Positions 1,095 through 64,000 of a DNA stretch of 64,000 bases are shown here, piece by piece. Every line of letters starts with the position of its first letter. The first letter of the stretch is position 1. The translations under genes were made by a program, and so were the position numbers. Where the stretch lies: assembly GCF_035084215.1 (NCBI RefSeq), contig NC_090364.1:4464001-4528000 (forward strand), written 5' to 3'. Source of the stretch: Heptranchias perlo (Eukaryota). The notes under the pieces were generated by a model. It made no database searches. It saw nothing but the letters and a program-made list of their open reading frames with translations, and was not told the origin of the DNA.

Positions 1095-3138
1095 CTAACG
1101 CGCGGAGGGAGCGGGGCCGCTCGTCGACCGCCACTCCCTCAAGAGCCCGGTGAGGAGGGATCTGAGCCGACGCAGCCCGACCCCGCCGTCGTCCCCTTCC
1201 GCGGCCACGGACGCGACGGCGGCCAGGACCGAGCGGATTAACTGCGCCGGCTCCGACCAACGGTCGAGGGCCAGCCGGACGCCATCGCGACGACGGCTCC
1301 AACCGGACGCAAAATCCCGGAGTTCCTCAACGGGGATGAGGGGAGACTCGGTGCCGGGCACGAGGGCGTCCACCACCTCACTGGCGGCAAACTCTAAATC
1401 CTCCCCAGTGCCCACCACCGAGTCCCCGTCCTCCTCCGGGTCATCGTCGCCCGCGGCCGACCCGCTCCCCGCACAAAGCGCGGAGAACGAGACGGCCGCG
1501 CCGGCCAGCCCCGCCTCCGCCACGATCCCACCCCCAGGATCGTCGGCAGAGGAGTCCTCCCCGGGCTCCACCGGGGGGTCCGAGTCAGACGGCGGCGCCG
1601 GGCGGGGACCCTCCCCAGCCTCCGAGCGGTGAAAAAACCGGCACCCGGATATAAGGGGAACCCGGGGAAACCGGGGAGAACGTGTACTCAAGTTCTCCCA
1701 CCTCCCCCGGCTCCGAGCCCAGAGACTGAGAGGAGGGGGTCTCCCCACCCACGTCGCCACCGACCGACCCGGCCGGTGAGATATTCTGGTTAAAACCCAC
1801 CACCAGGTCGAGCAGGTCCTGGGAGAGGTCGAGCCGGGGGCAGACGAATTTGGCCGCAACGGCCTCGCCCACCCCGGCACCCAGGACGCCCGACCCGGTG
1901 AACAGGGTGGTATCGGGTAAATGCGGATCCGCGACCCCCCCTATCGGCGGGGTCTCTCCATCCCCCCCGGGAGGCACGGGCACGATCTCCTCCCCCCGAG
2001 AGGTGGATGACCCCCGCCGCTGTTCGGATGTCACGGGCGGGGCCGCAGGATCCGCGACCGGCACCGACTCCCCTTCCACGGGGGGCCGTCCCTTAGCAGG
2101 GAGCCCGTTCGCTTCCGGGGAGTGGCGCCTCTTTTTCTTCCCGGGGGGTCGCGGAGGGAGGGGGAACTCCATGTCTGCTGGGACCCCCACCTCCGCTCCC
2201 TCCTGATCACCCGCCAGCCCGGGCTCTGTCGCGACCGCGAGATGTTGACTGGCCGCGGTCACGGCCTCGGGCTGACTCAGATCTTCTCTGTCCCGGGGAC
2301 CAGCCTCTAAATTCTTCCTCTTTCTCCGCGCCTTTCTCTGGCGAGGGTTCCCCTCCTCCCCCCTGGCGGAGGCCTCGACGCCAACCTCCACCCGCGCAGT
2401 TGACTGTCCCGACGCGGGGGCGGGGTTGGGGGGAGGAGCGGTGGCGGCGCCAGCCCCGGCCGCCGTAGCTGTTTTGGCGGCCTGAGAGGCAGGGCAGTTC
2501 CTCTTCAGGTGCCCCACCTCCTTACAGGCATGGCACCGCCCACCCTCTGCCGTCCAAAAGACGCGGTAAGGGATCCCCTCGTGGAGGGCGTTAAAGCCCC
2601 CCTCCGTAACCTCCTCCCGTGCCAGCTTGACGAATGCCTGGCGACGGAAGGAGTAAACATGCCGGAGGCTGTTCTCCCTGAGTCCGAGCGGCAGCGGCGT
2701 TACCCCCGACCTCACCTCCCCCAGTTGACGTAGGTGGGGGAGGAGGAGCTCGTCCGACAGGAAAGGCGGGACGTTGGATAAAATGACTCGCTGCGCGGTG
2801 GCCTCCAGCGGGTCCACCGGCAGGAAGGTCCCGCCAACCGTGAGCCCCTTACTAAGGGCCAGGGACACCGCCCGCTCGGACCTCAGGAAGAACACCGCCC
2901 TCCCGTACATTTTTGAGGCCGCGACGATGGCCGAGGGGCCGACAACCTCGGCCATGGCCTTTACGCAGGCCTCAATGGTCATGTTGGGGTGGGCGTAGCT
3001 CTTCACCCCATGCTTCCTCGTAATGAGGCGGAAAGGCGCCGGCCCAGCAGGAGCGGCACGAACTGTAGGAGCGGCCCCCGAGGTAACCGCCGCATACGTC
3101 CTGCTGGGTCCCGGCACCGGCGAAGATGGTGAAGCCAT
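1095..3138 (-). CDS. Copy A ORF1 (Tx1-type RNA-binding protein with zinc knuckle, ~680 aa), 1-nt frameshift near 1635
   Basis: MASPSSP start at 3138; CHACKEVGHLKRNC (CX2CX4HX4C); split over ORFs 1585..3162 and 1095..1880 by an A6 run where other copies have A5. Confidence 0.85.
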
Positions 3139-3844
3139 GACTGAGAGCCACACCCACCCCAAGTCTCAGGCCTTTGGATGGAAATTGGCCTTTTTTTTTA
3201 AAAGAATTCTTGAGGATACCTCTCTCCCCGAATCCCAGTGCTTGGTTGGGAGAGGGCCCCTTTGTTGTTTTTATATATTCCCAGAATACCCCGGAGAGCA
3301 AGGGAATATCCCAGAGAGCAGGAGAAGGTGGGAGGGATGGATGGCAGAATGGGAAGGAGGGAGTCTGCAGGGGTCGGCTGCTGCAGAAGTGGGTGGAAGA
3401 GGGGCGGGGTTGCACCTTAAAAGGTGGATCCTCTTCTGCCTGTCTTCCGGTGGGCAGGGGGAGGAGATGTCTTCCCCTAGACAGCTGGAGCTGCCTAGGC
3501 TCAGCCCTCCAAAGATTTGAAAAAGAAAGTAACTTCACCCAGGCAGCTCCAGCTGTCCCGGGCCAGACACTTGGGGGGGGACCCCTGTCCTCTGAAGTCT
3601 TCTTCCTCCCCCTACCTTCAGCCGACACACCTCACTGCACCGACCACCTCTTCCTCCCACTGGTTGGTGCTCTTTTTCTCCTTCTCCCTCCCTCCTTGTT
3701 GATGGTGGTTTCTCCTTCTTTCTCCTTCTCCTTCTCCTTCTCCCCAAGGGACCCAGGCAAGGGCCTGCTCTCTCTGCTCTCTCTGCTCTCCACTCCACTC
3801 AGTGGCAGTCCAGCCACAAACACCTCCAAGGCCTTGCTGGTCTG

Positions 3845-3920
3845 TATTGCAAAGCTCTGATTGGCTCTGGATATCAATCTCTCCCCCAGAGCCCTGTCCT
3901 TTGTTAATTGGTGCTTGGAT
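3845..3920 (+). repeat. 76-bp ferritin-promoter fragment between Tx1 copies A and B
   Basis: tattgcaaagctctgattggctctgg...ttgttaattggtgcttggat aligns with ferritin promoters (e.g. 49148-49227); same sequence as 10407-10482. Confidence 0.9.
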
Positions 3921-4016
3921 TTTTTTTCTTTTTTTTTATTAGGCCCCCCTTTTATAAGAAGGGGTGGTGTGGGGTGTGCTTAACAACTAAAAACCAAACA
4001 AACCAAAACCAAGAGT

Positions 4017-7000
4017 TCAAATCAAAATTTTATTATCCTCGTTCAGGATGCACTCCAGCCCCTGCGGTGCCCACCGGTCGCGGAAAGCCTCGAGTGTACC
4101 GGCAGACACCGCGTGCTCCATCTCCAGGGCCACCCGGGCGCGGAGCAACCCGCGAAAGAGAGGCAGACAGGCCGAGCGCCCACCCCCGCGGACCGCGAGC
4201 ATCCTGGACCTGTGGATAGCCACCTTGGACAGGCCCAGGAGCAGGCCCACGAGAACGTCCACCGACCTGCCCGCCCCCCTCCTCACCGGGCGGCCAAAGA
4301 TCAGGAGCGTGGGACTGAAATGCAGCCAGAACTTGAGGAGCAGCCCCTTCAAATAATGGAACAGGGGCTGCAGTCTCGCACACCCGGTGTACAGATGGAA
4401 CACGGACTCCTCCAGGCCGCAGAAATCGCAAGCGGCCTGGGTGTCCGTAAAATGGCGTAACCGCCGGTTGCACGCGACTGCTCCGTGCGCCACCCTCCAC
4501 CCCAGATCCCCAAAGTAACACGGGAGGACCCCTGTATAGAGAGCCTCCCAATGGGGACCCCCGTCTCCGCCGGACGGCAGGATGGTACGCCAGGGCGTGT
4601 CCGGGCGAGAGACGAGGGCGAGGAAGTGGATGGTGTGCAGGAGCAGCCCGTACAGGAAATCCCTCCGCGCGGTGTGAAACGGCACGGAGGGAATTTCCGA
4701 GAGACGACTCAAGTTGTGAGGCGCGGCCCCCCGAGGGAGGTTCCGGGGTTTGGCGCCGAGGAGGAACTCCGTCCGAACGGGGGTCAGGTCGGACGGGATG
4801 GCTCCGCACGCCTGAGCCGCCTCCACATCCCGAGTGGAGTCAGGGCCGAGCGCCGATTTCAACGCCCGGATGGCGATGGCCGCGTCCCCGGCACGCCACG
4901 AGGACATCCGTGCGGCGAGCGCCCACGGCTCCAACCAACCCGACCCACCGCCATCCAGGACGTCCCTGACTCTGGTCACCCGACCGGCCACGGCCCTCCG
5001 CACCGACAGCCGCGAGTGGCCGAAGCCGATATCGCGGAGGAACGGATTCCCGAGCAGCGGCTCCTGCAGGACGGCCGCTACCCCTGACGGGCGAGAGCTC
5101 CGACCGGAGGCGACCATGTTCCAGACCCTGAGCAGATCCTGGTAAAAGACAGGCAGCTCCTGCAAAGACGTGCGGCCGCCCACCAGCGAGATGAACAGGA
5201 GCTGCGTGTCGTAGTTCAGGCCGTGCAGCTGGCGGAAAAAATACGTCGCCAGCGCACGCCATCTAAGAGGACGCTCAACGTACAGGTATCGCCGCAGCGT
5301 CCGAAGGCGGAAAGTTGCCACCTGGGTGCGGACGCACACCAGCCCCTGACCGCCCTCCCTAAGCGGGAGACTCAGGACCGCGGCAGCGACCCAGTGTATC
5401 CCTCTGGCCCAGAAGAAGTCGACAAACTTCTTCTGAATCTTGGCGACAAACTCAGGGGGGGGGGGTCAAAGTGACCAACCGGTACCACAACATGGCGGCC
5501 ACCAGCTGGTTTATGACCAGCACACGACCCCTGTAGGATAACACTCGGAGCAGTCCTGTCCAGCGCGCCAGGCGAGCGGCGACCTTGGCCTCCAGCTCTT
5601 CCCAGTTCGCCGGCCAGGCTTCCTCGGCAGGGCCGAGGTAGACTCCCAGGTACCGGAGGTGCGTGGTACTCCAGGCGAAAGGCCTGAGCTCCTCCGGCAT
5701 GGAGTCCACCCGCCACTGACCCACCAGGAGTCCGGAACATTTCTCCCAGTTGATCCTTGCGGAAGACGCCGCAGAGTAGACCTCTTGGCACTCGCGCATC
5801 CTCCGCAAGTCAAGGGGATCCGTGACCACGAGGAGCACGTCGTCGGCGTAAGCCGAAAGGACGACCTCCACGTCCGGCTCGCGCAGAGCCAGTCCCGACA
5901 ACCTCTTGCGCAAGAGGCGCAGGAAAGGCTCCACGCAGACGGTGTATAATTGGCCGGACATGGGGCACCCCTGACGCACTCCTCTCCCGAAGCGAAGGGG
6001 CGCCGTCAAGGATCCGTTAACCTTAATCAGACACTCCGCGGCGGCGTACAGAAGTCGGATCCGGGCGACGAAATGCGACCCGAACCCGAAAGCGCGCAGA
6101 GTCCCGAATAGATACTCGTGATCCACCCTGTCGAACGCCTTCTCCTGATCTAAGGAAAGGAAGGCGACCGACAGACCAGCCCTCTGGGAATGGTGGATCA
6201 GGTCCCGGACGAGATGGATGTTATCGTGGATCTTCCGGCCCGGGACCGTGTAGGACTGGTCGGGGTGGATCATGTGGGCCAGCACGGTGCCCAGGCGAGC
6301 AGACATCGCCTTGGCAAAGACCTTATAATCCGTGCTGAGGAGGGAGACCGGGCGCCAGTTTTTAAGGTTGCGGAGATCCCCCTTCTTAGGCAGCAGGACC
6401 ACGACCGCCCTGCGCCACGAAAGGGGCATCTCCCCGGTCGCCAGACATTCCCCCAGGACCCGCGCGTAGTCGCCCCCCAGGACGTCCCAGAAGGCCCTGA
6501 GGAACTCCACGGTCAGCCCGTCCAGCCCCGGGGACTTGCCCCTGGAGAGCTGGTGGAGGGCGCCGGTCAGCTCCGCCAAACTGAGCGGAGCGTCCAGACG
6601 CTCGGCGTCCTCCGGGCCGACCTTCGGCAAGTCCTCCCACAAAACTCTGCGCGCCTCCTCGCTGGACGGATCCGGAGAGAACAGAGCCTCGTAGAAAGAT
6701 CGAGCCCGGGCCCTGACTCCCTCCGGGTCCGAGACGAGGGACCCGTCGTCGGCCAGCAGCGTAAGGAGCTGCTTACGAGCCCCCCGCCGCTTTTCCAGCG
6801 AGTAGAAGAAGGGAGAGCCGCGGTCCAGGTCCCGCAGGAGCTGGAGCCGCGACCTCACGTACGCTCCTCGGGACCCGACCAGTTGCAGGTCCCTCAGAGC
6901 GTCCTTCCTCTCCTCGTACACCTGCCGCAGGGCCGGATCCTCGGCGGCCTGACCGAGACGGGACTCCAGGCCAAGCACCTCCTGCTCCAACCGCCTGACC

Positions 7001-7952: not shown

Positions 7953-9996
7953 CTAACGCGCGGAGGGAGCGGGGCCGCTAGTCGACCGCCACTCCCTCAA
8001 GAGCCCGGTGAGGAGGGATCTGAGCCGACGCAGCCCGACCCCGCCGCCGTCCCCTTCCGCGGCCACGGACGCGACGGCGGCCAGGACCGAGCGGATTAAC
8101 TGCGCCGGCTCCGACCAACGGTCGAGGGCCAGCCGGACGCCATCGCGACGACGGCTCCAACCGGACGCAAAATCCCGGAGTTCCTCAACGGGGATGAGGG
8201 GAGACTCGGTGCAGGGCACGAGGGCGTCCACCACCTCACTGGCGGCGAACTCTAAATCCTCCCCAGTGCCCACCACCGAGTCCCCGTCCTCCTCCGGATC
8301 ATCGTCGCCCGCGGCCGACCCGCTCCCCGCACAAAGCGCGGAGAACGAGACGGCCGCGCCGGCCGGCCCCGCCTCCGCCACGATCCCACCCCCAGGATCG
8401 TCGGCAGAGGAGTCCTCCCCGGGCTCCACCGGGGGGTCCGAGTCAGACGGCGGCGCCGGGCGGGGACCCTCCCCAGCCTCCGAGCGGTGAAAAACCGGCA
8501 CCCGGATATAAGGGGAACCCGGGGAAACCGGGGAGAACGTGTACTCAAGTTCTCCCACCTCCCCCGGCTCCGAGCCCAGAGACTGAGAGGAGGGGGTCTC
8601 CCCACCCACGTCGCCACCGACCGACCCGGCCGGTGAGATATTTTGATTAAAACCCACCACCAGGTCGAGCAGGTCCTGGGAGAGTTCGAGCCGGGGGCAG
8701 ACGAATTTGGCCGCAACGGCCTCGCCCACCCCGACACCCAGGACGCCCGACCCGGTGAACATGGTAGTGTCGGGTAAATGCGGAGCCGCGACCCCCCCTA
8801 TCGGCGGGGTCTCTCCATCCCCCCCCGGGAGGCACGGGCACTATCTCCTCCCCCCGAGAGGTGGATGACCCCCGCCGCTGTTCGGATGTCACGGGCGGGG
8901 CCGCAGGATCCGCGACCGGCACCGACTCCCCTTCCACGGGGGGCCGTCCCTTAGCAGGGAGCCCGTTCGCTTCCGGGGAGTGGTGCCTCTTTTTCTTCCA
9001 GGAGGGTCGCGGAGGGAGGGGGGACTCCATGTCTGCTGGGACCCCCGCCTCCGCTCCCTCCTGATCACCCGCCAGCCCGGGCTCTGTCGCGACCGCGAGA
9101 TGTTGACTGGCCGCGGTCACGGCCTCGGGCTGACTGAGATCTTCTCTGTCCCGGGGACCAGCCTCTAGATTCTTCCTCTTTCTCCGCGCCTTTCTCTGGC
9201 GAGGGTTCCCCTCCTCCCCCCTGGCGGAGGCCTCGACGCCAACCTCCACCCGCGCAGTTGACTCTCCCGACGCGGGGGCGGGGTTGGGGGGAGGAGCGGT
9301 GGCGGCGCCAGCCCCGGCCGCCGAAGCTGTTTTGGCGGCCTGAGAGGCAGGGCAGTTCCTCTTCAGGTGCCCCACCTCCTTACAGGCATGGCACCGCCCA
9401 CCCTCTGCCGTCCAAAAGACGCGGTAAGGGGTCCCCTCGTGGAGGGCGTTAAAGCCCCCCTCCGTAACCTCCTCCCGTGCCAGCTTGACGAATGCCTGGC
9501 GACGGAAGGAGTAAACATGCCGGAGGCTGTTCTCCCTGAGTCCGAGCGGCAGCGGCGTTACCCCCGACCTCACCTCCCCCAGTTGACGTAGGTGGGGGAG
9601 GAGGAGCTCGTCCGACAGGAAAGGCGGGACGTTGGATAAAATGACTCGCTGCGCGGTGGCCTCCAGCGGGTCCACCGGCAGGAAGGTCCCGCCAACCGTG
9701 AGCCCCTTACTAAGGGCCAGGGACACCGCCCGCTCGGACCTCAGGAAGAACACCGCCCTCCCGTACATTTTCGAGGCCGCGACGATGGCCGAGGGGCCGA
9801 CAACCTCGGCCATGGCCTTAACGCAGGCCTCAATGGTCATGTTGGGGTGGGCGTAGCTCTTCACCCCATGCTTCCTCGTAATGAGGCGGAAAGGCGCCGG
9901 CCCAGCAGGAGCGGCACGAACTGTAGGAGCGGCCCCCGAGGTAACCGCCGCATACGTCCTGCTGGGTCCCGGCACCGGCGAAGATGGTGAAGCCAT
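7953..9996 (-). CDS. Copy B ORF1, frameshift in C-run near 8820
   Basis: ORFs 8647..9996 and 7953..8762 together match ORF1 of copy A. Confidence 0.85.
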
Positions 9997-10406
9997 GACC
10001 TAAAGAGCCACACCCACCCCAAGTCTCAGGCCTTTGGATTGAAATTGGCCTCTTTTTTTTAAATGAAAACCTTGAGGAAAACCTCTCTCCCCGAATCCCA
10101 GTGCTTGGATGGGAGAGGGGCCCCTTTGTTGGTTTTTAAATTCCCCAAGAACACCCCGGAGAGCAAGGGAATATCCCAGAGAGCAGGAGAAGGTGGGAGG
10201 GATGGATGGCGGAATGGGAAGGACCGACCACCTCTTCCTCCCACTGGTTGGTGCTCTTTTTCTCCTTCTCCCTCCCTCCTTGTTGATGGTGGTTTCTCCT
10301 TCTCCCCAAGGGACCCAGGCAAGGGCCTGCTCTCTCTGCTCTCTCTGCTCTCCACTCCACTCAGTGGCAGTCCAGCCACAAACACCTCCAAGGCCTTGCT
10401 GGTCTG

Positions 10407-10482
10407 TATTGCAAAGCTCTGATTGGCTCTGGATATCAATCTCTCCCCCAGAGCCCTGTCCTTTGTTAATTGGTGCTTGGAT
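10407..10482 (+). repeat. 76-bp ferritin-promoter fragment between Tx1 copies B and C
   Basis: Same sequence as 3845-3920; ends GGAT followed by poly(T). Confidence 0.9.
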
Positions 10483-10578
10483 TTTTTTTCTTTTTTTTTA
10501 TTAGGCCCCCCTTTTATAAGAAGGGGTGGTGTGGGGTGTGCTTAACAACTAAAAACCAAACAAACCAAAACCAAGAGT

Positions 10579-13500
10579 TCAAATCAAAATTTTATTATCC
10601 TCGTTCAGGATGCACTCCAGCCCCTGCGGTGCCCACCGGTCGCGGAAAGCCTCGAGTGTACCGGCAGACACCGCGTGCTCCATCTCCAGGGCCACCCGGG
10701 CGCGGAGCAACCCGCGAAAGAGAGGCAGACAGGCCGAGCGCCCACCCCCGCGGACCGCGAGCATCCTGGACCTGTGGATAGCCACCTTGGACAGGCCCAG
10801 GAGCAGGCCCACGAGGACGTCCACCGACCTGCCCGCCCCCCTCCTCACCGGGCGGCCAAAGATCAGGAGCGTGGGACTGAAGCGCAGCCAGAACTTGAGG
10901 AGCAGCCCCTTCAAATAATGGAACAGGGGCTGCAGTCTCGCACACCCAGTGTACAGATGGAACACGGACTCCTCCAGGCCGCAGAAAATGCAAGCGGCCT
11001 GGGTGTCCGTAAAATGGCGTAAACGCCTGTTGCACGGGACTGCTCCGTGCAACACCCTCCACCCCAGATCCCCAAAGTAACACGGGAGGACCCCTGTATA
11101 GAGAGCCTCCCACTGGGGACCCCCGTCTCCGCCGGATGGCACGCCAGGGCGTGTCCGGCCGAGAGACGAGGGCGAGGAAGTGGATGGTGTGCAGGAGCAG
11201 CCTGTACAGGAAATCCCTCCGCGCGGTGTGAAACGGCACGGAGGGAATTTCCGAGAGACGACTCAAGTTGTGAGGCACAGCCCCCCGAGGGAGGTTCCGG
11301 GGTTTGGCGCCGAGGAGGAACTCCGTCCGAACGGGGGTCAGGTCGGACGGGATGGCTCCGCACGCCTGAGCCGCCTCCACATCCCGAGTGGAGTCAGGTC
11401 CGTGCGCCGATTTCAACGCCTGGATGGCGGCGGCCGCGTCCCCGGCACGCCATGAGGACATCCGTGCGGCGAGCGCCCACGGCTCCAACCAACCCGACCC
11501 ACCGCCATCCAGGACGTCCCTGACTCTGGTCACCTGACCGGCCACGGCCCTCCGCACCGACAGCCGCGAGTGGCCGAAGCCGATATCGCGGAGGAACGGA
11601 TTCCCGAGCAGCGGCTCCTGCAGGACGGCCGCTACCCCTGACGGGCGAGAGCTCCGACCGGAGGCGACCATGTTCCAGACCCTGAGCAGATCCTGGTAAA
11701 AGACAGGCAGCTCCTGCAAAGACGTGCGGCCGCCCACCAGCGAGACGAACAGGAGCTGCGTGTCGTAGTTCAGGCCGTGCAGCTGGCGGAAAAAATACGT
11801 CGCCAGCGCACGCCATCTAAGAGGACGCTCAACGTACAGGTATCGCCGCAGCGTCCGAAGGCGGAAAGTTGCCACCTGGGTGCGGACGCACACCAGCCCC
11901 TGACCGCCCTCCCTAAGCGGGAGACTCAGGACCGCGGCAGCGACCCAGTGTATCCCTCTGGCCCAGAAGAAGTCGACAAACTTCTTCTGAATCTTGGCGA
12001 CAAACTCAGGGGGGGGGGTCAAAGTGACCAACCGGTACCACAACATGGCGGCCACCAGCTGGTTTATGACCAGCACACGACCCCTGTAGGATAACACTCG
12101 GAGCAGTCCTGTCCAGCGCGCCAGGCGAGCGGCGACCTTGGCCTCCAGCTCTTCCCAGTTCGCCGGCCAGGCTTCCTCGGCAGGGCCGAGGTAGACTCCC
12201 AGGTACCGGAGGTGCGTGGTACTCCAGGCGAAAGGCCTGAGCTCCTCCGGCAGGGAGTCCACCCGCCACTGACCCACCAGGAGTCCGGAACATTTCTCCC
12301 AGTTGATCCTTGCGGAAGACGCCGCAGAGTAGACCTCTTGGCACTCGCGCATCCTCCGCAAGTCAAGGGGATCCGTGACCACGAGGAGCACGTCGTCGGC
12401 GTAAGCCGAAAGGACGACCTCCACGTCCGGCTCGCGCAGAGCCAGTCCCGACAACCTCTTGCGCAGGAAAGGCTCCACGCAGACGGCGTATAATTGGCCG
12501 GACATGGGGCACCCCTGACGCACTCCTCTCCCGAAGCGAAGGGGCGCCGTCAAGGATCCGTTAACCTTAATCAGACACTCCGCGGCGGCGTACAGAAGTC
12601 GGATCCGGGCGACGAAATGCGACCCGAACCCGAAAGCGCGCAGAGTCCCGAATAGATACTCGTGATCCACCCTGTCGAACGCCTTCTCCTGATCTAAGGA
12701 AAGGAAGGCGACCGACAGACCAGCCCTCTGGGAATGGTGGATCAGGTCCCAGACCAGATGGATGTTATCGTGGATCTTCCGGCCCGGGACCGTGTAGGAC
12801 TGGTCGGGGTGGATCATGTGGGCCAGCACGGTGCCCAGGCGAGCAGACATCGCCTTGGCAAAGACCTTATAATCCGTGCTGAGGAGGGAGACCGGGCGCC
12901 AGTTTTTAAGGTTGCGGAGATCCCCCTTCTTCGGCAGCAGGACCACGACCGCCCTGCGCCACGAAAGGGGCATCTCCCCGGTCGCCAGACATTCCCCCAG
13001 GACCCGCGCGTAGTCGCCCCCCAGGACGTCCCAGAAGGCCCTGAGGAACTCCACGGTCAGCCCGTCCAGCCCCGGGGATTTGCCCCTAGAGAGCTGGTGG
13101 AGGGCGCCGGTCAGCTCCGCCAAACTGAGCGGAGCGTCCAGACGCTCGGCGTCCTCCGGGCCGACCTTCGGCAGGTCCTCCCACAAAACTCTGCGCGCCT
13201 CCTCGCTGGACGGATCCGGAGAGAACAGAGCCTCGTAGAAAGATCGAGCCCGGGCCCTGACTCCCTCCGGGTCCGAGACGAGGGACCCGTCGTCGGCCAG
13301 CAGTGTAAGGAGCTGCTTACGAGCCCCCCGCCGCTTTTCCAGCGAGTAGAAGAAGGGAGAGCCGCAGTCCAGGTCCCGCAGGAGCTGGAGCCGCGACCTC
13401 ACGTACGCTCCTCGGGACCCGACCAGTTGCAGGTCCCTCAGAGCGTCCTTCCTCTCCTCGTACACCTGCCGCAGGGCTGGATCCTCGGCGGCCTGACCGA

Positions 13501-17223: not shown

Positions 17224-17383
17224 AACAAAGAGTCACTTTCAGATTGGTGGGAAGTCAAAGAGCCCAAAAGCAGTGACATCACTGAGACTGATCATCCAAA
17301 CCGGACTGTATTCCAAACCACTGATTGGCTCTGGGTATCAATCCCGCCCCCATAACCCGTCCTTTGTTAATTGGTGCCTGGAT
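17224..17383 (+). repeat. 160-bp ferritin-promoter fragment between Tx1 copies C and D
   Basis: Direct repeat of 24151-24310 (promoter of ferritin 1); ends GGAT followed by poly(T). Confidence 0.92.
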
Positions 17384-17488
17384 TTTTTTTTTTTTTTTTT
17401 CTCTTCTCTAATTAGGCCCCCCTTTTATAAGAAGGGGGGTGTGGGGTGTGCTTAACAACTAAAAACCAAACAAACCAAAACCAAGAGT

Positions 17489-24150: not shown

Positions 24151-24480
24151 AACAAAGAGTCACTTTCAGATTGGTGGGAAGTCAAAGAGCCCAAAAGCAG
24201 TGACATCACTGAGACTGATCATCCAAACCGGACTGTATTCCAAACCACTGATTGGCTCTGGGTATCAATCCCGCCCCCATAACCCGTCCTTTGTTAATTG
24301 GTGCCTGGATTCATGGAAGATTCCCGAGTGGCTATCGGGGATTGTCAATCATCATTGGTGATGTCATTCCAAGGTTGAATGCCGGCTGTCCCAGTGGTAT
24401 AAATACAAGAGCTTGTGCAGAAAGTGGATAGTTCTATAATTTTCCGGGTAATAGTATTCATATATTAAAAAAAAGTGAAG
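24151..24480 (+). promoter_or_regulatory. Ferritin promoter module (gene 1; repeated before genes 2, 3, 4, 6, 7, 8)
   Basis: TGACATCA 24201-24208, CTGATTGGCT (inverted CCAAT/Y-box) 24248-24257, further ATTGG boxes, TGATGTCA 24359-24366, TATAAATA 24398; equivalent TATA at 30084, 35235, 40011, 49314, 54328, 59554. Confidence 0.8.
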
Positions 24481-27062
<2,582 letters not shown>

Positions 27063-29072: not shown

Positions 29073-29525
29073 ACAAATGGAGATGTTTGTGTGGGTGACA
29101 TTGCATTCAGTAATCTTCACTCCCTCTCATTCTCGCTGAATATCCTGAATTTTACCAAACAACATTTCATGAGAATTAAAATCAAAACAATTACACATCC
29201 CACAATGCTTTGCCCAGTTGATGCCCCCATGCTGCCAATCCTCAGACACACCCATTCTCTATATTAGAACTGGGGACGATTCACACCATCCATGGGATGG
29301 AATTTCCATTTCTCTGTCCAATGGTTGGTTTACAAATTCACTCAAGATGACTTGATTGCGTTGAATATTGTCTCAGTGTCACAATTACTTACAAGTAATA
29401 AACTTGGCCAGATTATGAAAAGCAACTTCAGTGAAAATATTAAATTATCAAATAATTCAAAGTTATGATTCTGAAAGATTTATCCAAAGAGGCACATTTA
29501 GGGAGGTCAAAGAACCCAAAAAGCA

Positions 29526-29870
29526 TCAAAGGTGACCATCCACAGGTCCTGGCTGGATGCGGCCCGTGGGGGCGGTCGCTCCGACTCTCTGCCTCGCTCC
29601 GCAGCATTCTCTGCGCCCGGGTGGCCCTGGAGAGGGAGCACACGGTGTCTGCTGGTAAACTTGAGGCTTTCCGAGACCGGTGGGAGGCGCAGAGCTCGGA
29701 GTACGTCCTCGACTCCGACAATAAAGTTATGATTTGAATCTGGTTTTGTTGGATTTCGTAATAAAGAAATGAAGGTGACAAAAATACAGGTGACACTGGG
29801 TCTAAAGACAGCAACACAAGTGCCCCATCTTAGAATTATTTTAGTCAAACAGAAGAAAAGAGGGAAAAAC
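29526..29870 (+). mobile_element. Old 5'-truncated Tx1 fragment in the ferritin 2 promoter, sense orientation
   Basis: Encodes ARVALEREHTVSAGKLEAFRDRW (ORF2 C-terminus); flanked by the 13-bp direct repeat aacccaaaaagca (29513-29525, 29871-29883). Confidence 0.85.
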
Positions 29871-30165: not shown

Positions 30166-32564
<2,399 letters not shown>

Positions 32565-35320: not shown

Positions 35321-37655
<2,335 letters not shown>

Positions 37656-39209: not shown

Positions 39210-39789
39210 CCAAAGGTGACCATCCACAGGTCCAGGCTGGACGTGGCACGTGGGGGCGGTCGCTCTGAATCTCGTCTATCATTCTCTGCGACTGGATGGC
39301 CCTGGAGAGGGAGCACGCGGTGTCTGCCGTTATGCTTGAGGCTTTCCGCGACCGGTGGGCACCGGAGGGATTGGAGTGCATCCTGGATCAATACAATAAA
39401 ATTAGAATTTGACACTTATTTTGGGTTTATTGATTTGCTGCACATAAAAACACTCCCTAACCACCCCCCTCCCACCATACTTCTTATAAAAGGGGGGCCG
39501 AAAACAAAGAAGAAGAAAAGAAAACTAGACGAACATCACTAATAAAAAGTCAACCTAGAGAAAAAAAAACTTTCAATCTTATTCGTGTTTGGACAATTAG
39601 TTCCAAACGGGAAAGTTTAACTGGAGTTTGGAGCCCGTGTGGGGATTCGAGTGATCCATGGCCACAGAGCACCGAGGGAATGATTGGACCGTCAACCAGC
39701 CGGCACCAGTACCTCAGGCCAGTCCCACCGTCCCTTCAGAGCTCACTGACCTGCACAAAAAAAGTGCCCCATCTTAGAATTATTTTCGT
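39210..39789 (+). mobile_element. Old 5'-truncated Tx1 fragment plus extra 3' sequence in the ferritin 4 promoter
   Basis: ORF2 C-terminus, 3'UTR motif cttcttataaaaggggggcc, A-rich tract, ~250 bp of unrelated DNA; flanked by caaaaagca repeats. Confidence 0.85.
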
Positions 39790-45372: not shown

Positions 45373-45941
45373 CAAATGGAGATGTTTGTGTGGGTGACAT
45401 TGCATTCAGTAATCTTCACTCCCTCTCATTCTCACTGAATATCCTGAATTTTACCAAACAACATTTCATGAGAATCAAAACCAAAACAATGACACATCCC
45501 ACAATGCTTTGCCCAGTTGATGCCCCCATGCTGCCAATCCTCAGACACACCCATTCTCTATATTAGAACTGGGGACGATTCACACCATCCATGGGATGGA
45601 ATTTCCATTTCTCTGACCAATGGATGGTTTGCAAATTCACGCAAGACTATTTGATTCCTTTGAATATTGTCTCAGCATCACAATTACTAACAAGTAATAA
45701 ACTTGACCAGATTATGAAAAGCCACTTCAGTGAAAATATCAAATTATTCTCAAATAATTCAAAGTTGTCATTCCAAGAGAGGGGAAGCTTGCCAAAAAGT
45801 GAAATAAATTGAGTTTCACTAGTAACAAATGTTTTCTATTTGAAAGCAATTAACATCATTAACTGGGGGAAAAAGAATGAATAGCTTTAAATTGGATAGT
45901 GATCTCGATCAAACATGATATTCTTAAAATTCTCTCCACAG

Positions 45942-46959
<1,018 letters not shown>

Positions 46960-48512: not shown

Positions 48513-49102
48513 CCAAAGGTGACCATCCACAGGTCCAGGCTGGACGCGGCCTGTGGGGCGGTCGGTCCGACTCTGGTTCGTGGCATTCTCTGCGAACGGA
48601 TGGCCCTGGAGAGGGAGCACGCGGTGTCTGCCGTTATGCTTGAGGCTTTCCGCGACCGGTGGGCACCGGAGGGATTGGAGTGCATCCTGGGTCGATACAA
48701 TAAAATTATTATTTGACACTTATTTTTTGCTTATTGATTTGCTGCAAATTAAAACATTCGCTAACCCCACCCACCCCCACCACTTCTTATAAAAGGGGGG
48801 CCGTAAACAAAGAAGAAGAAAAGAAAACTAGACGAACATCACTAATAAAAAGTCAACCAAGAGAAAAAAAACTTTCAATCCTATTCGTGTTTGGACAATT
48901 AGTTCCAAACGGGAAAGTTTATCTGGAGTTTGGAGCCCGTGTGGGGATTCGAGTTATCCATGGCCACAGAGCACCGAGGGAATGATTGGACCGTCAACCA
49001 GCCGACACCAGTACCTCAGGACAGTCCCACCGTCCCTTCAGAGCTCACTGACCTGCACAAAAAAAGTGCCCCATCTATGAATTATTGTAGTAAAAAAATA
49101 CC
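48513..49102 (+). mobile_element. Old 5'-truncated Tx1 fragment in the ferritin 6 promoter
   Basis: Duplicate of 39210-39789; ERMALEREHAVSAVMLEAFRDRWAPEGLECIL. Confidence 0.85.
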
Positions 49103-53769: not shown

Positions 53770-54114
53770 TCAAAGGTGACCATCCACAGGTCCTGGCTGG
53801 ATGCGGCCCGTGGGGGCGGTCGCTCCGACTCTCTGCCTCGCTCCGCAGCATTCTCTGCGCCCGGGTGGCCCTGGAGAGGGAGCACACGGTGTCTGCTGGT
53901 AAACTTGAGGCTTTCCGAGACCGGTGGGAGGCGCAGAGCTCGGAGTACGTCCTCGACTCCGACAATAAAGTTATGATTTGATTCTGGTTTTGTTGGATTT
54001 CGTATTAAAGAAATGAAGGTGACAAAAATACAGGTGACACTGGGTCTAAAGACAGCAACACAAGTGCCCCATCTTAGAATTATTTTAGTCAAACAAAAGA
54101 AAAGAGGGAAAAAC
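53770..54114 (+). mobile_element. Old 5'-truncated Tx1 fragment in the ferritin 7 promoter
   Basis: Near-identical to 29526-29870 (offset 24244). Confidence 0.85.
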
Positions 54115-56619: not shown

Positions 56620-58477
56620 ACTGACTGCAGGAATAAAGCTTATTGTGTACAGTAGTCCAGTTTATATAGTCTGGTGCATGATGATTTGTGTGACTCTGGA
56701 GAGAGCTCTGAGACCTGGGCTGTTGATTTGGAATATGATAGAAACTGTAAATAAACTGTGTTTAACATTGGACTGGGTTTGGTCTCCTTTTTTTAAATTT
56801 TAAGCTGCTTATTTTTCAGTAAGAAGAACTACATTGGGCTGTTCGATACTGAACCATGTAATGATATTAGGACAGGTGAGCAAAAGGTAGGTTTTAAGAA
56901 GTATATTGAAGGAGAGGGAGGAAATGCTGAAGCTTAGGATTGAGGCAGCTGCATAGAAGTAACTGTTTCACCATTAGTGAATATCCCCTCTCCCACGTGT
57001 GTAACTTTTTTTTCTTAAAACACAAGGCCAGTGAATTAGTATTGCACCATTTCAATCAATGAACATCCTGTAAGAATGGTATCAGCCCTGGGACTAGCAG
57101 TTCAGGGTTTTTTTTAAAAAGTAAGGTGCTATGGCTCTTCAGTTATTTTGGGGTAGCTCACTAAACCAAACTGATCACGCTGCTCTAGACTTTCTGAAGG
57201 ATTGTGAGCAAAGCAGCACATGATGGCTCTGAAGTACCAGCACTGTCGAAGTTCATAATGTGAGCTCACAGAACTGAAGTGGACTTCAATTGGGTGAGAG
57301 GGAAATCAACAACTATTGGCCTCTTGATGGGAATGTGGGGACATTTTTTTTTCTGGGCCCCTCCTCTGCCAAAGGAGACTTTTCATCATCTCTGTAATCG
57401 CCAATCCTCCCAATTTAAGATCCTCCATGAACAAGAAATTGGGTGAGTTACTGGAGGCAGAATAATCCCTGTGGAACTGAACTTGAGCAAAACAACTTTC
57501 TGGAAAAAGCAAATATATTTTGTAAAACTCACCTCTTGAAATGCCAAGTTCACTATGACTAATTCTTTCGGGGGGGAAATTTTCCACTGTTCCATTCATT
57601 CACAAATCCTATACAATCAGCTCCACCATGAATTTATCAATTTGCCTTTAGTCCCATTGTGTATTGGATTCCAGAGTGACCATCCTTTTGCAATTCTGTT
57701 CGTTCTCCATTTGTCTCCTTCACTCCTATGAATGGATCAAATGTTGATGCTGCAGCTGTAATTATCCAGTGTTTACAAGTGAAGTTGTGAACTGCACTGG
57801 GTGTGATGGAATTGCAGTCTTCAGTCATTCCACGTTAATGTCTTTGCTTCTCTCAAGCACTTTTTGGGATCAATTTCATTACATTTCATACGTTGCTGAG
57901 CCACGATTGTTCGAGTGGGTGTGGATTTGTTGACGGGTTTGATGACTTCATATTTCAGACAAAAAGTCTTCAGCTCACTCTGTGCTGAATCTGGATGTGG
58001 ATCAGCTGCAAACATTCCCCACACTGAGGTCACAACTGGGCTAATGGGGGTTAACTGTTTACACCTCAAAGCAAAATAAGGTCAATGTTCACCTCACTCT
58101 GTGCTGATACATTTCCTACAGTCTGATTACAATGAAGAATAGCTCTGGTAGCAACTCCCCTGGTGATGGGCTAGAAAATACACATTTGTTCTTATGGAAG
58201 AGAAGTTTCTGTGTTTACATTTGAAGGAATTGTTTGATGCGGGAAACAGTTTATTCCAAGGGAACATATCTCATCACCTAATCCAGGACTGAAAACCTCA
58301 ACCATTTTGCAATGAAACCAGATGTCAAGACTTTGGATCTCAGAGAAACACCAGTGTGATGAGCCAGACTGTCAGACAATGTCTGAGTCTCATCATTTCA
58401 ATCAGATTCAAATATTCTTCAGCCTCATTGGAAGCTGATCATAAAAGGACTCACCGAACATGCTGGAGGGAATAGAA

Positions 58478-58901
58478 AGAAGGAACTTGCATTTATATCG
58501 CGTTTTAATGACCTCAGGACATCCCAAAGCGCCTACAGCCAATGAAGTACTTTTGAAATGTCGTCGCTGTTGTAATTAGGGAAACACAGGAGCCAATTTG
58601 CCCACAACAAGGTCCCACAAACAGCAATGTGATAATGACAAGATAATCTGTTTTAATTATGTAGGTTGAGGGATAAATATTAGCAAGGACACCACAAAGC
58701 ACTGCTCTTCTCTTACTCAAATTAGTGCCATGGGATCTTTTATATCCACCAACGTGAGCAGACAGGGCCTCAGTTCAATGTCTCCCTCGGTGTTGCAGTG
58801 AGGTATCAGTCTAGACTTTGTGCTCAAGTCTATGGATTGGGACTTGAACCCACAACCTTCTGACTCTGAGGTGAGAGTGCTGCCACTGAGTCACAGCTGA
58901 C
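58478..58901 (-). mobile_element. DeuSINE copy with a more complete 3' end
   Basis: Same family as 28705-29072, extending to ggaacttgcatttatat. Confidence 0.72.
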
Positions 58902-59640
58902 ACAAATGGAGATGTTTGTGTGGGTGACATTGCATTCAGTAATCTTCACTCCCTCTCATTCTCGCTGAATATCCTGAATTTTACCAAACAACATTTCATG
59001 AGAATCAAAACTAAAAATGACACATCCCACAATGCTTTGCCCAGTTGATGCCCCCATGCTGCCAATCCTCAGACACACCCATTCTCTATATTAGAACTGG
59101 GGACGATTCACACCATCCATGGGATGGAATTTCCATTTCTCTGTCCAATGGTTGGCTGGCAAATTCACTCAAGACTACTTGTTTCCTCTGAATATTGTCT
59201 CAGCGTCACAATTACTAACAAGTAATAAACTTGACCAGATTAAGAAAAGCCACTCTGGTGAAAATAGCAAATTATTATCAAATAATTCAAAGTTGCCATT
59301 TCGAGAGATTGAAACAAAGAGAAACTTTCAGATTTGAGGAAATTCAAAGACCCCAAAAGCAGTGACATCACGGAGACTGATTATCCAAATTGGCCTGTAT
59401 TCCAAACCTCTGATTGGCTCTGGGTATCAACCCCTCCCCACACTGCCTCTCCTTTGTTAATTGGTTAAATGGACGATTCCTGATTGGCTATCGGGGATTG
59501 TCAATCATCATTGGTGATGTCATTGCTTACCAAAATGCAGGCTGTCCCAGTAGTATAAATACAAAGAGCTTGGGCAGGTTAAGTTTAGTTCTAGAAGTTT
59601 TTGAGCAATAGTTGAAAGTGATATTATTGAATTGGTGATG

Positions 59641-60604
59641 ATGGCATCCCAAGTGTGTCAGAATTACCACAAGGAGTGTGAGGATGGTGTCAACAAGCAG
59701 ATCAATATGGAGCTCTATTCCTCCTATGTTTACCTCTCCATGGTAAGTCTTTTATTAATTGCCACTGCATTCTCAGGAGTTGGAATTTCTCCAGTTCAAT
59801 AAACTGGCTTTAAAGTATGTTTCTCTTGATTTCTTTCCACCTCCCTTGGAAGGCAAAGCTTTGGCCAGTGAGTACTTCCAGTGTGTAATACAGGGTGATC
59901 TTGTTGAGTTAATGGACTGCTCCTTGCAGTCGTTGCACTCCATTGTGGGGTTTAATATACTCCTGGCTCAGCTGCTGCCTGAGTTTGTAACAAATGCAGA
60001 AACCTGGTCAAGTGCTTGTCAGCATTTGTCCAATTTCAGTTTCAATGGGGTGACTGCAGCCAGTGAAATGTTGACAGGTCCTCACTAGTTTTCTTGCCTT
60101 GAGACTCCTAGTGATGAAGCTTTCTTTACTGAGCCTAGATCTCTATTACACTAAATGATTGTACAGTGTAAAACTACTGGAATGGAGTAATGGTCCCTTG
60201 TTCCTCTCCTAATTTTAGATTAGAATGGAGAGTAAATGTAGTACTAGCTCAGAAGTGAAGTTTGAGATGAAATGTAATCCCTGACCTTAATTGCTATTTC
60301 TCTCTGACCATTCATTATCCTATTGGGGAGGGGGAAGCTATTGAACATCTTGTGAAGTAAATTGAATTTCACTAGTAAACAAATGGTATCTAATTTCTAA
60401 AACTTTGAGCACTAATTGTATGTCGGTGAGATCTCTGTCTGACATGATGCTGTTTTCAATATTCTCTCCACAGTCCTGTTACTTTGACCGGGATGATGTT
60501 GCCCTGCGTCACTTTACCAAGTTTTTCAAGGAGCAGTCTCATGAGAACTGGGAGCACGCTGAGAAACTGCTGAAATTCCAGAATCGACGTGGTGGCTGTA
60601 TTTT
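59641..60604 (+). pseudogene. Ferritin gene 8 (ENWEH variant), exon 2 interrupted by a retro-insertion
   Basis: Exon 1 59641-59742; exon 2 from 60474 breaks at ggtggctgta|poly(T); the rest of the gene is not in the window. Confidence 0.88.
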
Positions 60605-60785
60605 TTTTCTACATTGTGAATCTGGGTATAACTGACTGTTTCTGGACCCACCAAGATGCCCATCAATTGTCCAAGAGATGGGATAACTTAGAACCGATTG
60701 TGCTCGACACTATCTGCGGGATGGGATTTCCATTTGTAAACTCATCGATCTCTGATATGTTGTGAAGCTCTGATTCGGGAACAGA

Positions 60786-63038
60786 TTTTTTTTTTGTGAT
60801 TTTTAGGCCCCCCTTTTATAAGATGGGGGTGTGTAGGGTGTGCTTAAATACTAGAAAACCAAATAATCCACAACCAAGTTTCAAATTAAAATTTTATTCT
60901 CCTCGTCCAGGATGCACTCCAGCCCCTGCGGTGCCCACCGGTCGCGGAAAGCCTCGAGCGTACCGGCAGACACCGCGTGCTCCATCTCCAGGGCCACCCG
61001 GGCGCGGAGCATTCGAGCAGGTCCTGGGAGAGGTCGAGCCGAGGGCAGACTAATTCGGCTGCAACGGCCTCGCCCACCAAGGACGCCCGACCCGGTGAAA
61101 GGGATACTGGCGTCAGTACACGGATCTGTGACCCCGCCCCCCCATCAGCAGGGTCTCCCCATCCCCCCCCGAGAGGCACGGGCTCGGTCTCCTCCCCCAG
61201 AGAGGCGGACGTCCCCCGCCGCTGGTTAGAAATAATGGGCGGGGCCGCAGGATCCATGGCTGGCGCCACCTCCCCTTCCACGGTGGGCCGTCCCTTAGCA
61301 GGGACCCCCCTCCGCTTCCAGGGAATGGGGCCTTTCCTTCCCGGAGGGTCGCGGAGGGAGGGGGAGCTCCATGTCTGCTGGGGCCCCCACCTCCGCTCCC
61401 TCCTGATCACCCGCCAACCCGGGCTCTGTCGTGACCGCGAGATGTTGACTGGCCGCGGTCACGGCCTCGGGCTGACTGAGATCTTCTTTGTCCCGGGGAC
61501 CAGCCTCTAAGTTCTTCCTCTTCCTCCGCGCCTTTCTCTGGCAAGGGTTCCCCTCCTCTTCCCCCCCCCCCCCCCCCCCCCTGGCGGAGGCCTCGACGCC
61601 AACCTCCACCCGCGCAGTTGACTCTCCCGACGCGGGGGCGGGGTTGGGGGGAGGAGCGGTGGAGGCGCCAGCCCCGGCCGCCGTAGCTGTTTTGGCGGCC
61701 TGAGAGGCAGGGCAGTTCCTCTTCAGGTGCCCCACCTCCTTACAGGCATGGCACCGCCCACCCTCTGCCGTCCAAAAGACGCGGTAAGGGGTCCCCTCGT
61801 GGAGGGCGTTAAAGCCCCCCTCCGTAACCTCCTCCCGTGCCAGCTTGACGAATGCCTGGCGATGGAAGGAGTAAACATGCCGGAGGCTGTTCTCCCTGAG
61901 TCCGAGCGGCAGCGGCGTTACCCCCGACCTCACCTCCCCCAGTTGACGTAGGTGGGGGAGGAGGAGCTCGTCCGACAGGAAAGGCGGGACGTTGGATAAA
62001 ATGACCCGCTGCGCGGTGGCCTCCAGCGGGTCCACCGGCAGGAAGGTCCCGCCCACCGTGAGCCCCTTACTAAGGGCCAGGGACACCGCCCGCTCGGACC
62101 TCAGGAAGAACACCGCCCTCCCGTACATTTTTGAGGCCGCGACGATGGCCAAGGGGCCGACAACCTCGGCCATGGCCTTAACGCAGGCCTCAATGGTCAT
62201 GTTGGGGTGGGCGTAGCTCTTCACCCCATGCTTCCTCGTAATGAGGCGGAAAGGCGCCGGCCCAGCAGGAGCGGCACGAACTGTAGGAGCGGCCCCCGAG
62301 GTAACCGCCGAATACGTCCTGCTGGGTCCCGGCACCGGCGAAGATGGTGAAGCCATGACTTTAAGAGCCACACCCACCCCAAGTCTCAGGCCTTCGGATG
62401 GAAATTGGCCTGTTTTGAAAAGAATCCTTGAGGAAACCTCTCTCCCCGAATCCCAGTGCTTGGTTGGGAGAGGGGCCCCTTTGTTGGTTTTTAAATTTTC
62501 CCCAAGAACACCCTGGAGAGCAAGGGAATATCCTGGAGAGCAAGAGAAGGAAGGAAGGAGGGATGGATGGCAGAATGGGAAGGAGGGAGTCTGCAGGGGT
62601 AGGCTGCTGTGGAAGAGGGGCGGGGTTGCACCTTAAAAGGTGGATCTTCTTCTGGTGGGCAGGGGGAGGAGATGTCTTCCCCGAGACAGCTGGAGCTGCC
62701 GAGGCTCAGTCCTCCAAAGATTTGAAAAAGAAAGAAAGTAACTTCACCCAGGCAGCTCCAGCTGTCCTGGGCCAGACACTTGGGGGGGACCCCTGTCCTC
62801 TAGTCTTCTTCCTCCCCCTACCTTCAGCCGACACACCTCACTGCACCGACCACCTCTTCCTCCCACTGGTTGGTGCTCTTTTTCTCCTTCTCCCTCCCTC
62901 CTTGTTGATGGTGGTTTCTCCTTCTTTCTCCTTCTCCCCAAGGGACCCAGGCAAGGGCCTGCTCTCTCTGCTCTCTCTGCTCTCCACTCCACTCAGTGGC
63001 AGTCCAGCCACAAACACCTCCAAGGCCGAGCTGGTCTG
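60786..63038 (-). mobile_element. Tx1 copy E, internally deleted (~2.25 kb)
   Basis: Poly(T), 3'UTR and last ~40 ORF2 codons are joined at ~61012 to the middle of ORF1; 5'UTR retained. Confidence 0.9.
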
Positions 63039-63201
63039 AACAAAGACACTTTCAGATTGGAGGGAGGATTTTTTTCTCTTTTTTTTTTTCTCTTTGGATG
63101 TTGTCAGAGTCCGTGGCCCACGGACTCTGCCTCAGGCTGATTGGGACAGACAATTAGTGCCAGTTAACAGCACTGCGATAAAGAGAGGAGTCGGTTCTCC
63201 A

Positions 63202-64000
63202 TTTTTCTTTTTTTTTCCAAATTAGGCCCCCCTTTTATAAGAAGGGGGGTGTGGGGTGTGCTTAAATACTAAAACCAAACCAAAACCAAGTGTTCAAATT
63301 AAAATTTTATTATCCTCGTCCAGGATGCACTCCAGCCCCTGCGGTGCCTACCGGTCGCGGAAAGCCTCGAGCGTACCGGCAGACACCGCGTGCTCCATCT
63401 CCAGGGCCACCCGGGCGCGGAGCATCCCGCGGAAGAGAGGCAGACAGGCCGAGCGACCGCCCCCACGGACCACGATCATCCTAGACCTGTGGATGGCCAC
63501 CTTGGACAGGCCCAGGAGCAGGCCCACGAGGACGTCCACCGACCTGCCCGCCCCCCCCCTCCTCACCGGGCGGCCAAAGATCAGGAGCGTGGGACTGAAA
63601 TGCAGCCAGAACTTGAGGAGCAGCCCCTCCAAATAATGGAACGGGGGCTGCAGTCTCGCACACCCGGTGTACAGATGGAACACGGACTCCTCCAGGCCGC
63701 AGAAATCGCAAGCGGCCTGGGTGTCCGTGAAATGGCGTAACCGCCGGTTGCACGCGACTGCTCCGTGCGCCACCCTCCACCCCAGATCCCCAAAGTAACA
63801 CGGGAGGACCCCTGTATAGAGAGCCTCCCACTGGGGATCCCCGTCTCCGCCGGACGGCAGGCTGGCACGCCAGGGCGTGTCCGGCCGAGAGACGAGGGCG
63901 AGGAAGTGGATGGTGTGCAGGAGCAGCCCGTACAGGAAATCCCTCCGCGCGGTGTGAAACGGCACGGAGGGAATTTCCGAGAGACGGCTCAAGTTGTGAG
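63202..64000 (-). mobile_element. Tx1 copy F, 3' end (continues beyond the window)
   Basis: Poly(T), 3'UTR and ORF2 C-terminus with zinc finger; TGG>TAG stop at 63348. Confidence 0.92.

Follow-up and report, generated by a model that had tools for sequence, protein, structure and literature searches.

Probable 3′ transduction by a Tx1-type retrotransposon into exon 2 of a shark ferritin gene

Introduction

Partnered 3′ transductions of human L1 consist of the element, its own poly(A), a short flank, often of about 100 bp, and a second poly(A). According to the available text of PMC13009371, such two-tail transductions are common for L1 and arise from source copies with a weak signal. Among the sequence-specific families of the Tx1 clade, Keno, Kibi, Koshi and Tx1-Mar have been assigned targets in transposons, U2, U5 and 5S RNA genes, satellites and microsatellites, specificity being accepted where the target sequence occurs in more than 20% of the flanks genome-wide (available part of PMC4494074). 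The same part describes SINEU-2, whose 5′ extensions derive from Mariner-N4_AMi; their proposed origin is transcription out of the flanking DNA (PMC4494074). As far as the accessible part of 10.1101/2024.09.09.611499 goes, shark ferritin copies number in the hundreds and occupy several ancient clusters, and the ferritin array of the Greenland shark is expressed in the ovary.

Here we analyse a stretch of 64,000 nucleotides, called the window throughout, from the shark Heptranchias perlo, in which a Tx1-type element interrupts exon 2 of a ferritin gene. The insert has the two-tail anatomy of partnered L1 transductions (PMC13009371, available text). It differs from human L1 in belonging to the Tx1 clade, in lying in the germline of a shark, and in having no AATAAA before its outer tail; neither a source copy nor a target-site duplication is seen. 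As with Xenopus Tx1L and the specific Tx1 families, a fixed site in a multicopy target and tandem insertions are seen, but the apparent target lies in the promoters of an array of protein-coding genes, unlike the targets named in the available part of PMC4494074. The antisense insertion in the target and the target-derived DNA at the 5′ end (63039–63068) recall SINEU-2, although the present case pairs a gene promoter with a LINE copy that has suffered a deletion, and that of SINEU-2 a transposon target with a SINE (PMC4494074, in part). Literature searches that covered few subscription papers and not Repbase returned no paper joining Tx1, ferritin and retrotransposon, and, with the same limited coverage, none on Tx1 with transduction and read-through.

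Materials and Methods

Contigs from four public DNA runs of one sample were compared with positions 60440–61160. The sample may be the assembled individual, so the contigs check the assembly and not the population. Contig depths are not copy numbers and serve as rough ratios only. The motif of the target site was drawn from the junctions of the window itself.

Results and Discussion

Eight ferritin genes lie in tandem across the window. Over 51 residues, exon 4 of the array shares 98% identity with a Heptranchias ferritin cluster of 180 members, and shark paralogs, many of them diverged, form the majority among the 120 matches listed for this exon. The eighth gene matches Pfam Ferritin at E = 7.5e-8 and is 90% alike to its paralog, gene 3, up to 60604, beyond which gene 3 continues as exon. 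Summed contig depth on ferritin exon 2 (60440–60600) is 1,250–5,600 as against 15–25 for single junctions, which as a rough ratio points to a very large ferritin family.

A non-LTR element is represented by six copies on the minus strand, A–D at 1–24150 and E and F at the right end. ORF2 of copy D has matches to APE endonuclease, reverse transcriptase and zinc finger, and is 50% identical over 98% to ORF2 of Xenopus Tx1. Since its endonuclease and reverse transcriptase appear closest to Tx1L, the element is assignable to the Tx1 clade. Copy E is 90–91% identical to D in their common parts; its ORF1 is 80% identical to that of D and has an in-frame stop near 61295, and about 4.5 kb, including nearly all of ORF2, is deleted at 61012/61013. 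The features are collected in Table 1.

Table 1. Positions of the features discussed in the text.
Feature	Position	Strand	Description
Local upstream stretch	59091..59138	+	About 460 bp before the TATA box; copies at 29264, 34775, 45563 and 53508
Ferritin gene 8	59554..60604	+	TATA 59554, ATG 59641, exon 2 from 60474, broken at 60604
Near-cognate target (candidate)	60589..60602	+	GTGGTGGCTGTA/TT, 3 mismatches to TTGGTGCYTGGA/TT
Outer tail	60601..60610	-	T8-C-T on the plus strand, first 4 T also the gene's own
Carried segment	60611..60785	-	Non-coding, small multicopy family; variant contigs about 10% different
48-bp core	60688..60735	+	Ungapped, 34/48 identical to 59091–59138
Copy E	60786..63038	-	Tx1-type, own tail from 60786, internally deleted, non-autonomous
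Promoter-like 5′ flank of E	63039..63068	+	30 bp, ferritin promoter-like, same joining base as C and D
Second two-tail structure	63069..63201	-	Tail 63069–63095 plus 106 bp, before the own tail of F at 63202
Copy F	63202..64000	-	Tx1-type element represented by its 3′ end; the window stops within it

At the break, exon 2 runs to 60604 and is followed by the T8-C-T tail, by foreign DNA and by the poly(T) of copy E; the two T runs are T8 at 60601–60608 and T10 at 60786–60795. Exon 2 of gene 3 reads GGCTGTATTTTCCTGG, so four of the eight T at 60601 are native to the gene and the new tail is T4-C-T. The first-pass annotation had placed about 180 bp between a poly(T) at 60601 and the poly(T) of E at 60786, and this is confirmed, the exact length being 175 bp. 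Among the contigs listed, one covering 60573–60678 crosses the junction with zero differences and was found in three of the four runs; it extends 32 letters to the left of 60604/60605, just above the 31-letter rule, but no more than 28 to the left of 60601.

The segment belongs to a family of several copies. Its summed depth in run X1 is about 140–425 versus 15–25 for junction contigs, a rough ratio that corresponds to roughly 5–15 loci. One paralog contig matches 60611–60724 with 12 differences in 114 and carries 39 other letters left of 60611. Because this match stops exactly at 60611 with other DNA beyond, the window copy is an excerpt that ends at the tail start. The own tail of the element is thus separated from a second, short tail by non-element DNA, and the same DNA is present elsewhere and continues there into other sequence, both of which are expected of a 3′ transduction. 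Two metagenome scans with short motifs for the source locus gave no matches. In Rfam, nothing in the window reached the gathering score, and the segment had no match at E up to 5.

A coding origin of the segment was considered and rejected, there being neither a homologous protein nor codon-like variation. None of its six frames matches any of 120 ferritin models (best E = 0.14), and its translation found no match in Pfam, PDB or a protein search. Starting at 60610, the plus strand has an open frame of 51 codons, a length equalled by 680 of 2000 shuffles and by 96 of 187 local windows. Nine of the 13 segment alleles among those listed change a residue, one of them to a stop, and the matches in the 48-bp core, sorted by codon position (11, 11 and 12 of 16), follow no codon pattern. 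Two further candidates were discarded: three profile matches to unrelated tandem-repeat proteins with weak scores summed, and LRR-like Atlas matches with scores below 0.9.

A 3′ transduction with insertion at exon 2 is the probable origin of this arrangement. The first-pass annotation had proposed it together with a donor in a distant ferritin-like promoter. The transduction is supported by the two tails, the lack of a signal in E, the paralog that stops at 60611 and the near-cognate site, while the distant donor, with one 48-bp core in its favour, is only plausible. A polyadenylation signal 10–30 nt before the tail is usual but not universal. No A[AT]TAAA occurs in 60595–60660 on the element strand, before the outer tail, and this counts against a transduction. 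The 3′ ends of E, F and D are likewise without A[AT]TAAA; copies A and B have AATAAA. Copy D has no such signal, yet there is only a promoter duplication beside it, which counts against the read-through reading.

The remainder of exon 2, of the CCTGGAGGACATCAAG type, was searched for in 60605–64000 and not found; the far end of the insertion lies beyond 64000. This absence counts against an insertion. It would suit, alternatively, a deletion or recombination that fused exon 2 to DNA upstream of another gene, with E and F in place there as A–D are before gene 1, possibly as an insertion-associated deletion. The core, copy E and the promoter-like 63039–63068 are indeed ordered as in the local genes, and the array has other such cases, for instance gene 5 without exon 1. 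However, the break coincides with the best target match in the unit and has an added T4-C-T, and the divergence of the segment greatly exceeds that of the 5′ flank, a difference for which a single native locus would not account. The 30-bp 5′ flank of E is 85–91% like the local promoters and the segment is not, so the two stem from different loci, as with a mobile unit and an inherited leader. A deletion is unlikely.

Four motifs in the segment had been said to resemble, in order, the region upstream of the local genes. GATGCCC (60655), TTAGAAC (60688), GGGATGGGATTTCCATTT (60718) and AAGCTCTGATT (60765) are present in that order, but the likeness holds for the 48-bp core with TTAGAAC and not for the groups around GATGCCC and AAGCTCTGATT, which are at chance level. 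A BLAST search against the window pairs the core with 59091–59138 and its four paralogous copies at E = 0.006; these five local matches are near-identical and therefore count as one. An upstream profile finds the core at E = 0.004 in a window search, the next match being at E = 2.5, and the core is its sole non-local match in the window. When the core was compared with 1 kb of upstream DNA, its score was reached by none of 600 dinucleotide shuffles under two scoring schemes and by 10 of 600 under a third, so the alignment is significant for the core. For both flanks it is not: left of the core, with GATGCCC, the score was reached by 1015, 959 and 667 of 2000 shuffles, and right of it, with AAGCTCTGATT, by 1447, 417 and 1708 of 2000. 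The remaining 127 bp are accordingly at chance level in six of six tests. GATGCCC occurs 9 times versus 11.7 expected, and its distance to TTAGAAC is 33 bp in the segment and 44 locally. The site near 59407 reads AACCTCTGATT, with one mismatch to the motif of the segment.

The variation within the segment family bears on the core. Its majority alleles lift the core to 36/48, those at 60711 and 60716 being the local base. Six of the 13 alleles listed for the segment fall in the core, two majority alleles moving toward the local base, three minority alleles moving away and one being neutral; outside the core, the majority alleles at 60648 and 60679 move away from the local base. The local stretch 59091–59138 holds GGAATTTCC, a putative NF-kB-like site, and the core too holds a putative site of this kind.

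It is very improbable that the structure is an assembly artefact or the core likeness a product of chance. The region is repeat-rich, no contig among those listed spans the whole stretch, and the core was found after the fact with an E of only 0.004–0.006. The junction contig is nevertheless exact in three of four runs, and the majority alleles improve the core.

The same transduction could have had a donor other than ferritin upstream DNA, in which case the core would be a short regulatory module common to both, or a piece of an old repeat within a different low-copy family. The likeness is limited to 48 of 175 bp, a proximal-promoter profile has no match in the segment, and the own junction of E is not target-like. 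The end of the likeness at the core also counts against a ferritin donor, since sawshark upstream DNA near the TATA box is still recognisable: the translated start of a sawshark ferritin gene model (P0165) matches window 59170–59340 at 54% over 41 codons, which shows the local upstream region nearer the TATA box to be conserved between sharks. The three other tail-side extras, at 63096–63201, 39530–39765 and 29745–29830, are without likeness to ferritin upstream DNA. Against a non-ferritin donor, the core is ungapped, is oriented as it should be if an antisense copy had stood upstream of a ferritin gene, and is the one non-local match of the upstream profile in the window. A non-ferritin donor is a possibility that we consider doubtful. 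The chances that the donor stood beside a ferritin gene, as a ferritin-paralog donor, are about even.

The landing site tells more. The tails of B, C and D start at TTGGTGCYTGGA/TT, which is promoter sequence of five local genes, and the promoters of genes 3 and 8 are without this site owing to a common 7-bp gap. Within the gene-3 unit the target is matched best by the exon-2 site, 1 of 294 A/TT sites there being this close, and in host DNA 6 of 2040 are as close. Its rank is stable at motif lengths of 12–16 and weaker at 8 (46/294) and 20 (10/294). The inner junction, that of E itself, has 6 mismatches in 14 to the target 14-mer, as do 304 of 2040 background sites; for F, the outer junction has 4 mismatches (26/2040) and the inner 7 (716/2040). 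Of seven tail junctions in the window, three are exact, two near and two at background; the A–B junction equals the B–C junction, and the two may be one event. An A directly precedes the T run at all seven junctions examined.

The exon-2 site thus looks like a preferred target of the element and may be the first tolerated variant of the candidate endonuclease target. Together with the 30 bp of ferritin promoter-like DNA at the 5′ end of E, it seems to support targeting better than the carried DNA does, which had been put forward as independent support. That support is weak: the six mismatches at the junction of E place its presumed source off the canonical site, so the segment adds little, and the three other extras are unlike ferritin DNA.

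The contrast between outer and inner junctions could also reflect a template switch, in which the segment derived from a tailed RNA of its own, for instance an upstream antisense transcript, and reverse transcription began at exon 2, jumped to the tail of E and later to that of F. With 6 and 7 mismatches, the inner junctions of E and F do not resemble the target, whereas the outer ones, with 3 and 4, do, and tandem copies are common in the window. On the other hand, the A before the T run at every junction is expected of former cut sites, and two separate switches would be required, one for E and one for F. Such a switch seems quite improbable.

We lean overall towards a Tx1 3′ transduction into exon 2, with a flank most likely from upstream DNA of a diverged ferritin subfamily. 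A Tx1-type element with an endonuclease preferring TTGGTGCYTGGA/TT in ferritin promoters would have mobilised the deleted copy E in trans. We infer that the transcript of the source of E ran 175 nt past its own tail into the flank and was tailed there, because the source copy was without a canonical polyadenylation signal. The RNA would then have been inserted antisense by target-primed reverse transcription at the best near-match in gene 8, exon 2 being hit because this type of gene had lost the promoter site. The flank would come from the small multicopy family with the 48-bp likeness, most likely the upstream region of the diverged subfamily. Copy F may have inserted later in the promoter-like leader of E, or arrived on the same cDNA.

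A 3′ transduction of this type is an ordinary, well-known kind of event. Its 175 bp can be used as a tag to trace the source copy and to show whether the element moves between ferritin subfamilies. A Tx1 family targeting the promoters of a huge protein-coding array would, if true, represent a new kind of target, which the present finding supports only indirectly. A bolder and rather doubtful proposal is that the ferritin clusters of sharks serve the family as a target and also lend it an antisense promoter, that it passes from one diverged subfamily to another, and that it carries pieces of ferritin regulatory DNA at both ends, 175 bp behind and 30 bp in front; where the promoter site is lost, it would cut the nearest look-alike and kill the gene. 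If so, a sequence-specific retrotransposon lives on a protein-coding gene array and shapes the birth and death of its genes.

Other insertions in the window show related arrangements. The 5′ flank of E ends in a 4-mismatch target-like site, where the tail of F begins, and the 106 bp behind that tail (63096–63201) are unrelated to local ferritin DNA; 63069–63201 holds a hairpin with an 11-bp stem (63105–63129) and a CCAAT-like ATTGG. Around copy D, 161 bp of promoter are duplicated exactly (17224–17384 and 24151–24311), and the A–B and B–C spacers are 75 bp of the promoter of another paralog (87% alike). These duplications are too long for ordinary target-site duplications and may reflect a promoter-derived leader or unequal crossing-over. 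Older, 5′-truncated copies in the opposite orientation lie at 29526–29766, 39213–39525, 48516–48826 and 53770–54010; all follow ...AAAAAGCA in the promoter, repeat AAAAAGCA on the far side, and have extra 3′ DNA of their own. Summed contig depth (60790–61010) is about 9,000–11,000 at the 3′ end of Tx1 and reaches 95,000 at the ORF2 end, which, against 15–25 for single junctions, suggests as a rough ratio thousands of short Tx1-related copies.

Two further joints were seen in the contigs. One, from 60545 to 61080, links exon-2 DNA to ORF1 of the element with only 20 letters on its short side, and is perhaps another exon-2 insertion, or chance. The other, from 60786 to 60932, joins opposite strands, as a second insertion at the segment end or a nested element would; the depth at 60754 suggests the latter.

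In gene 5 (45780–45950), upstream DNA is fused directly to intron 1, and the proximal promoter and exon 1 are missing. Exon 2 of gene 1 is interrupted near its end by an in-frame TGA (25476–25481), GGCTGA versus GGCCGA in the paralogs, and the usual exon 4 end of this gene is without a stop; in gene 3 the reading frame shifts where exon 3 ends (36983–37110). Fragments at 30523–30900 and 58470–58903 are putative shark SINE/LINE-tail-like elements.
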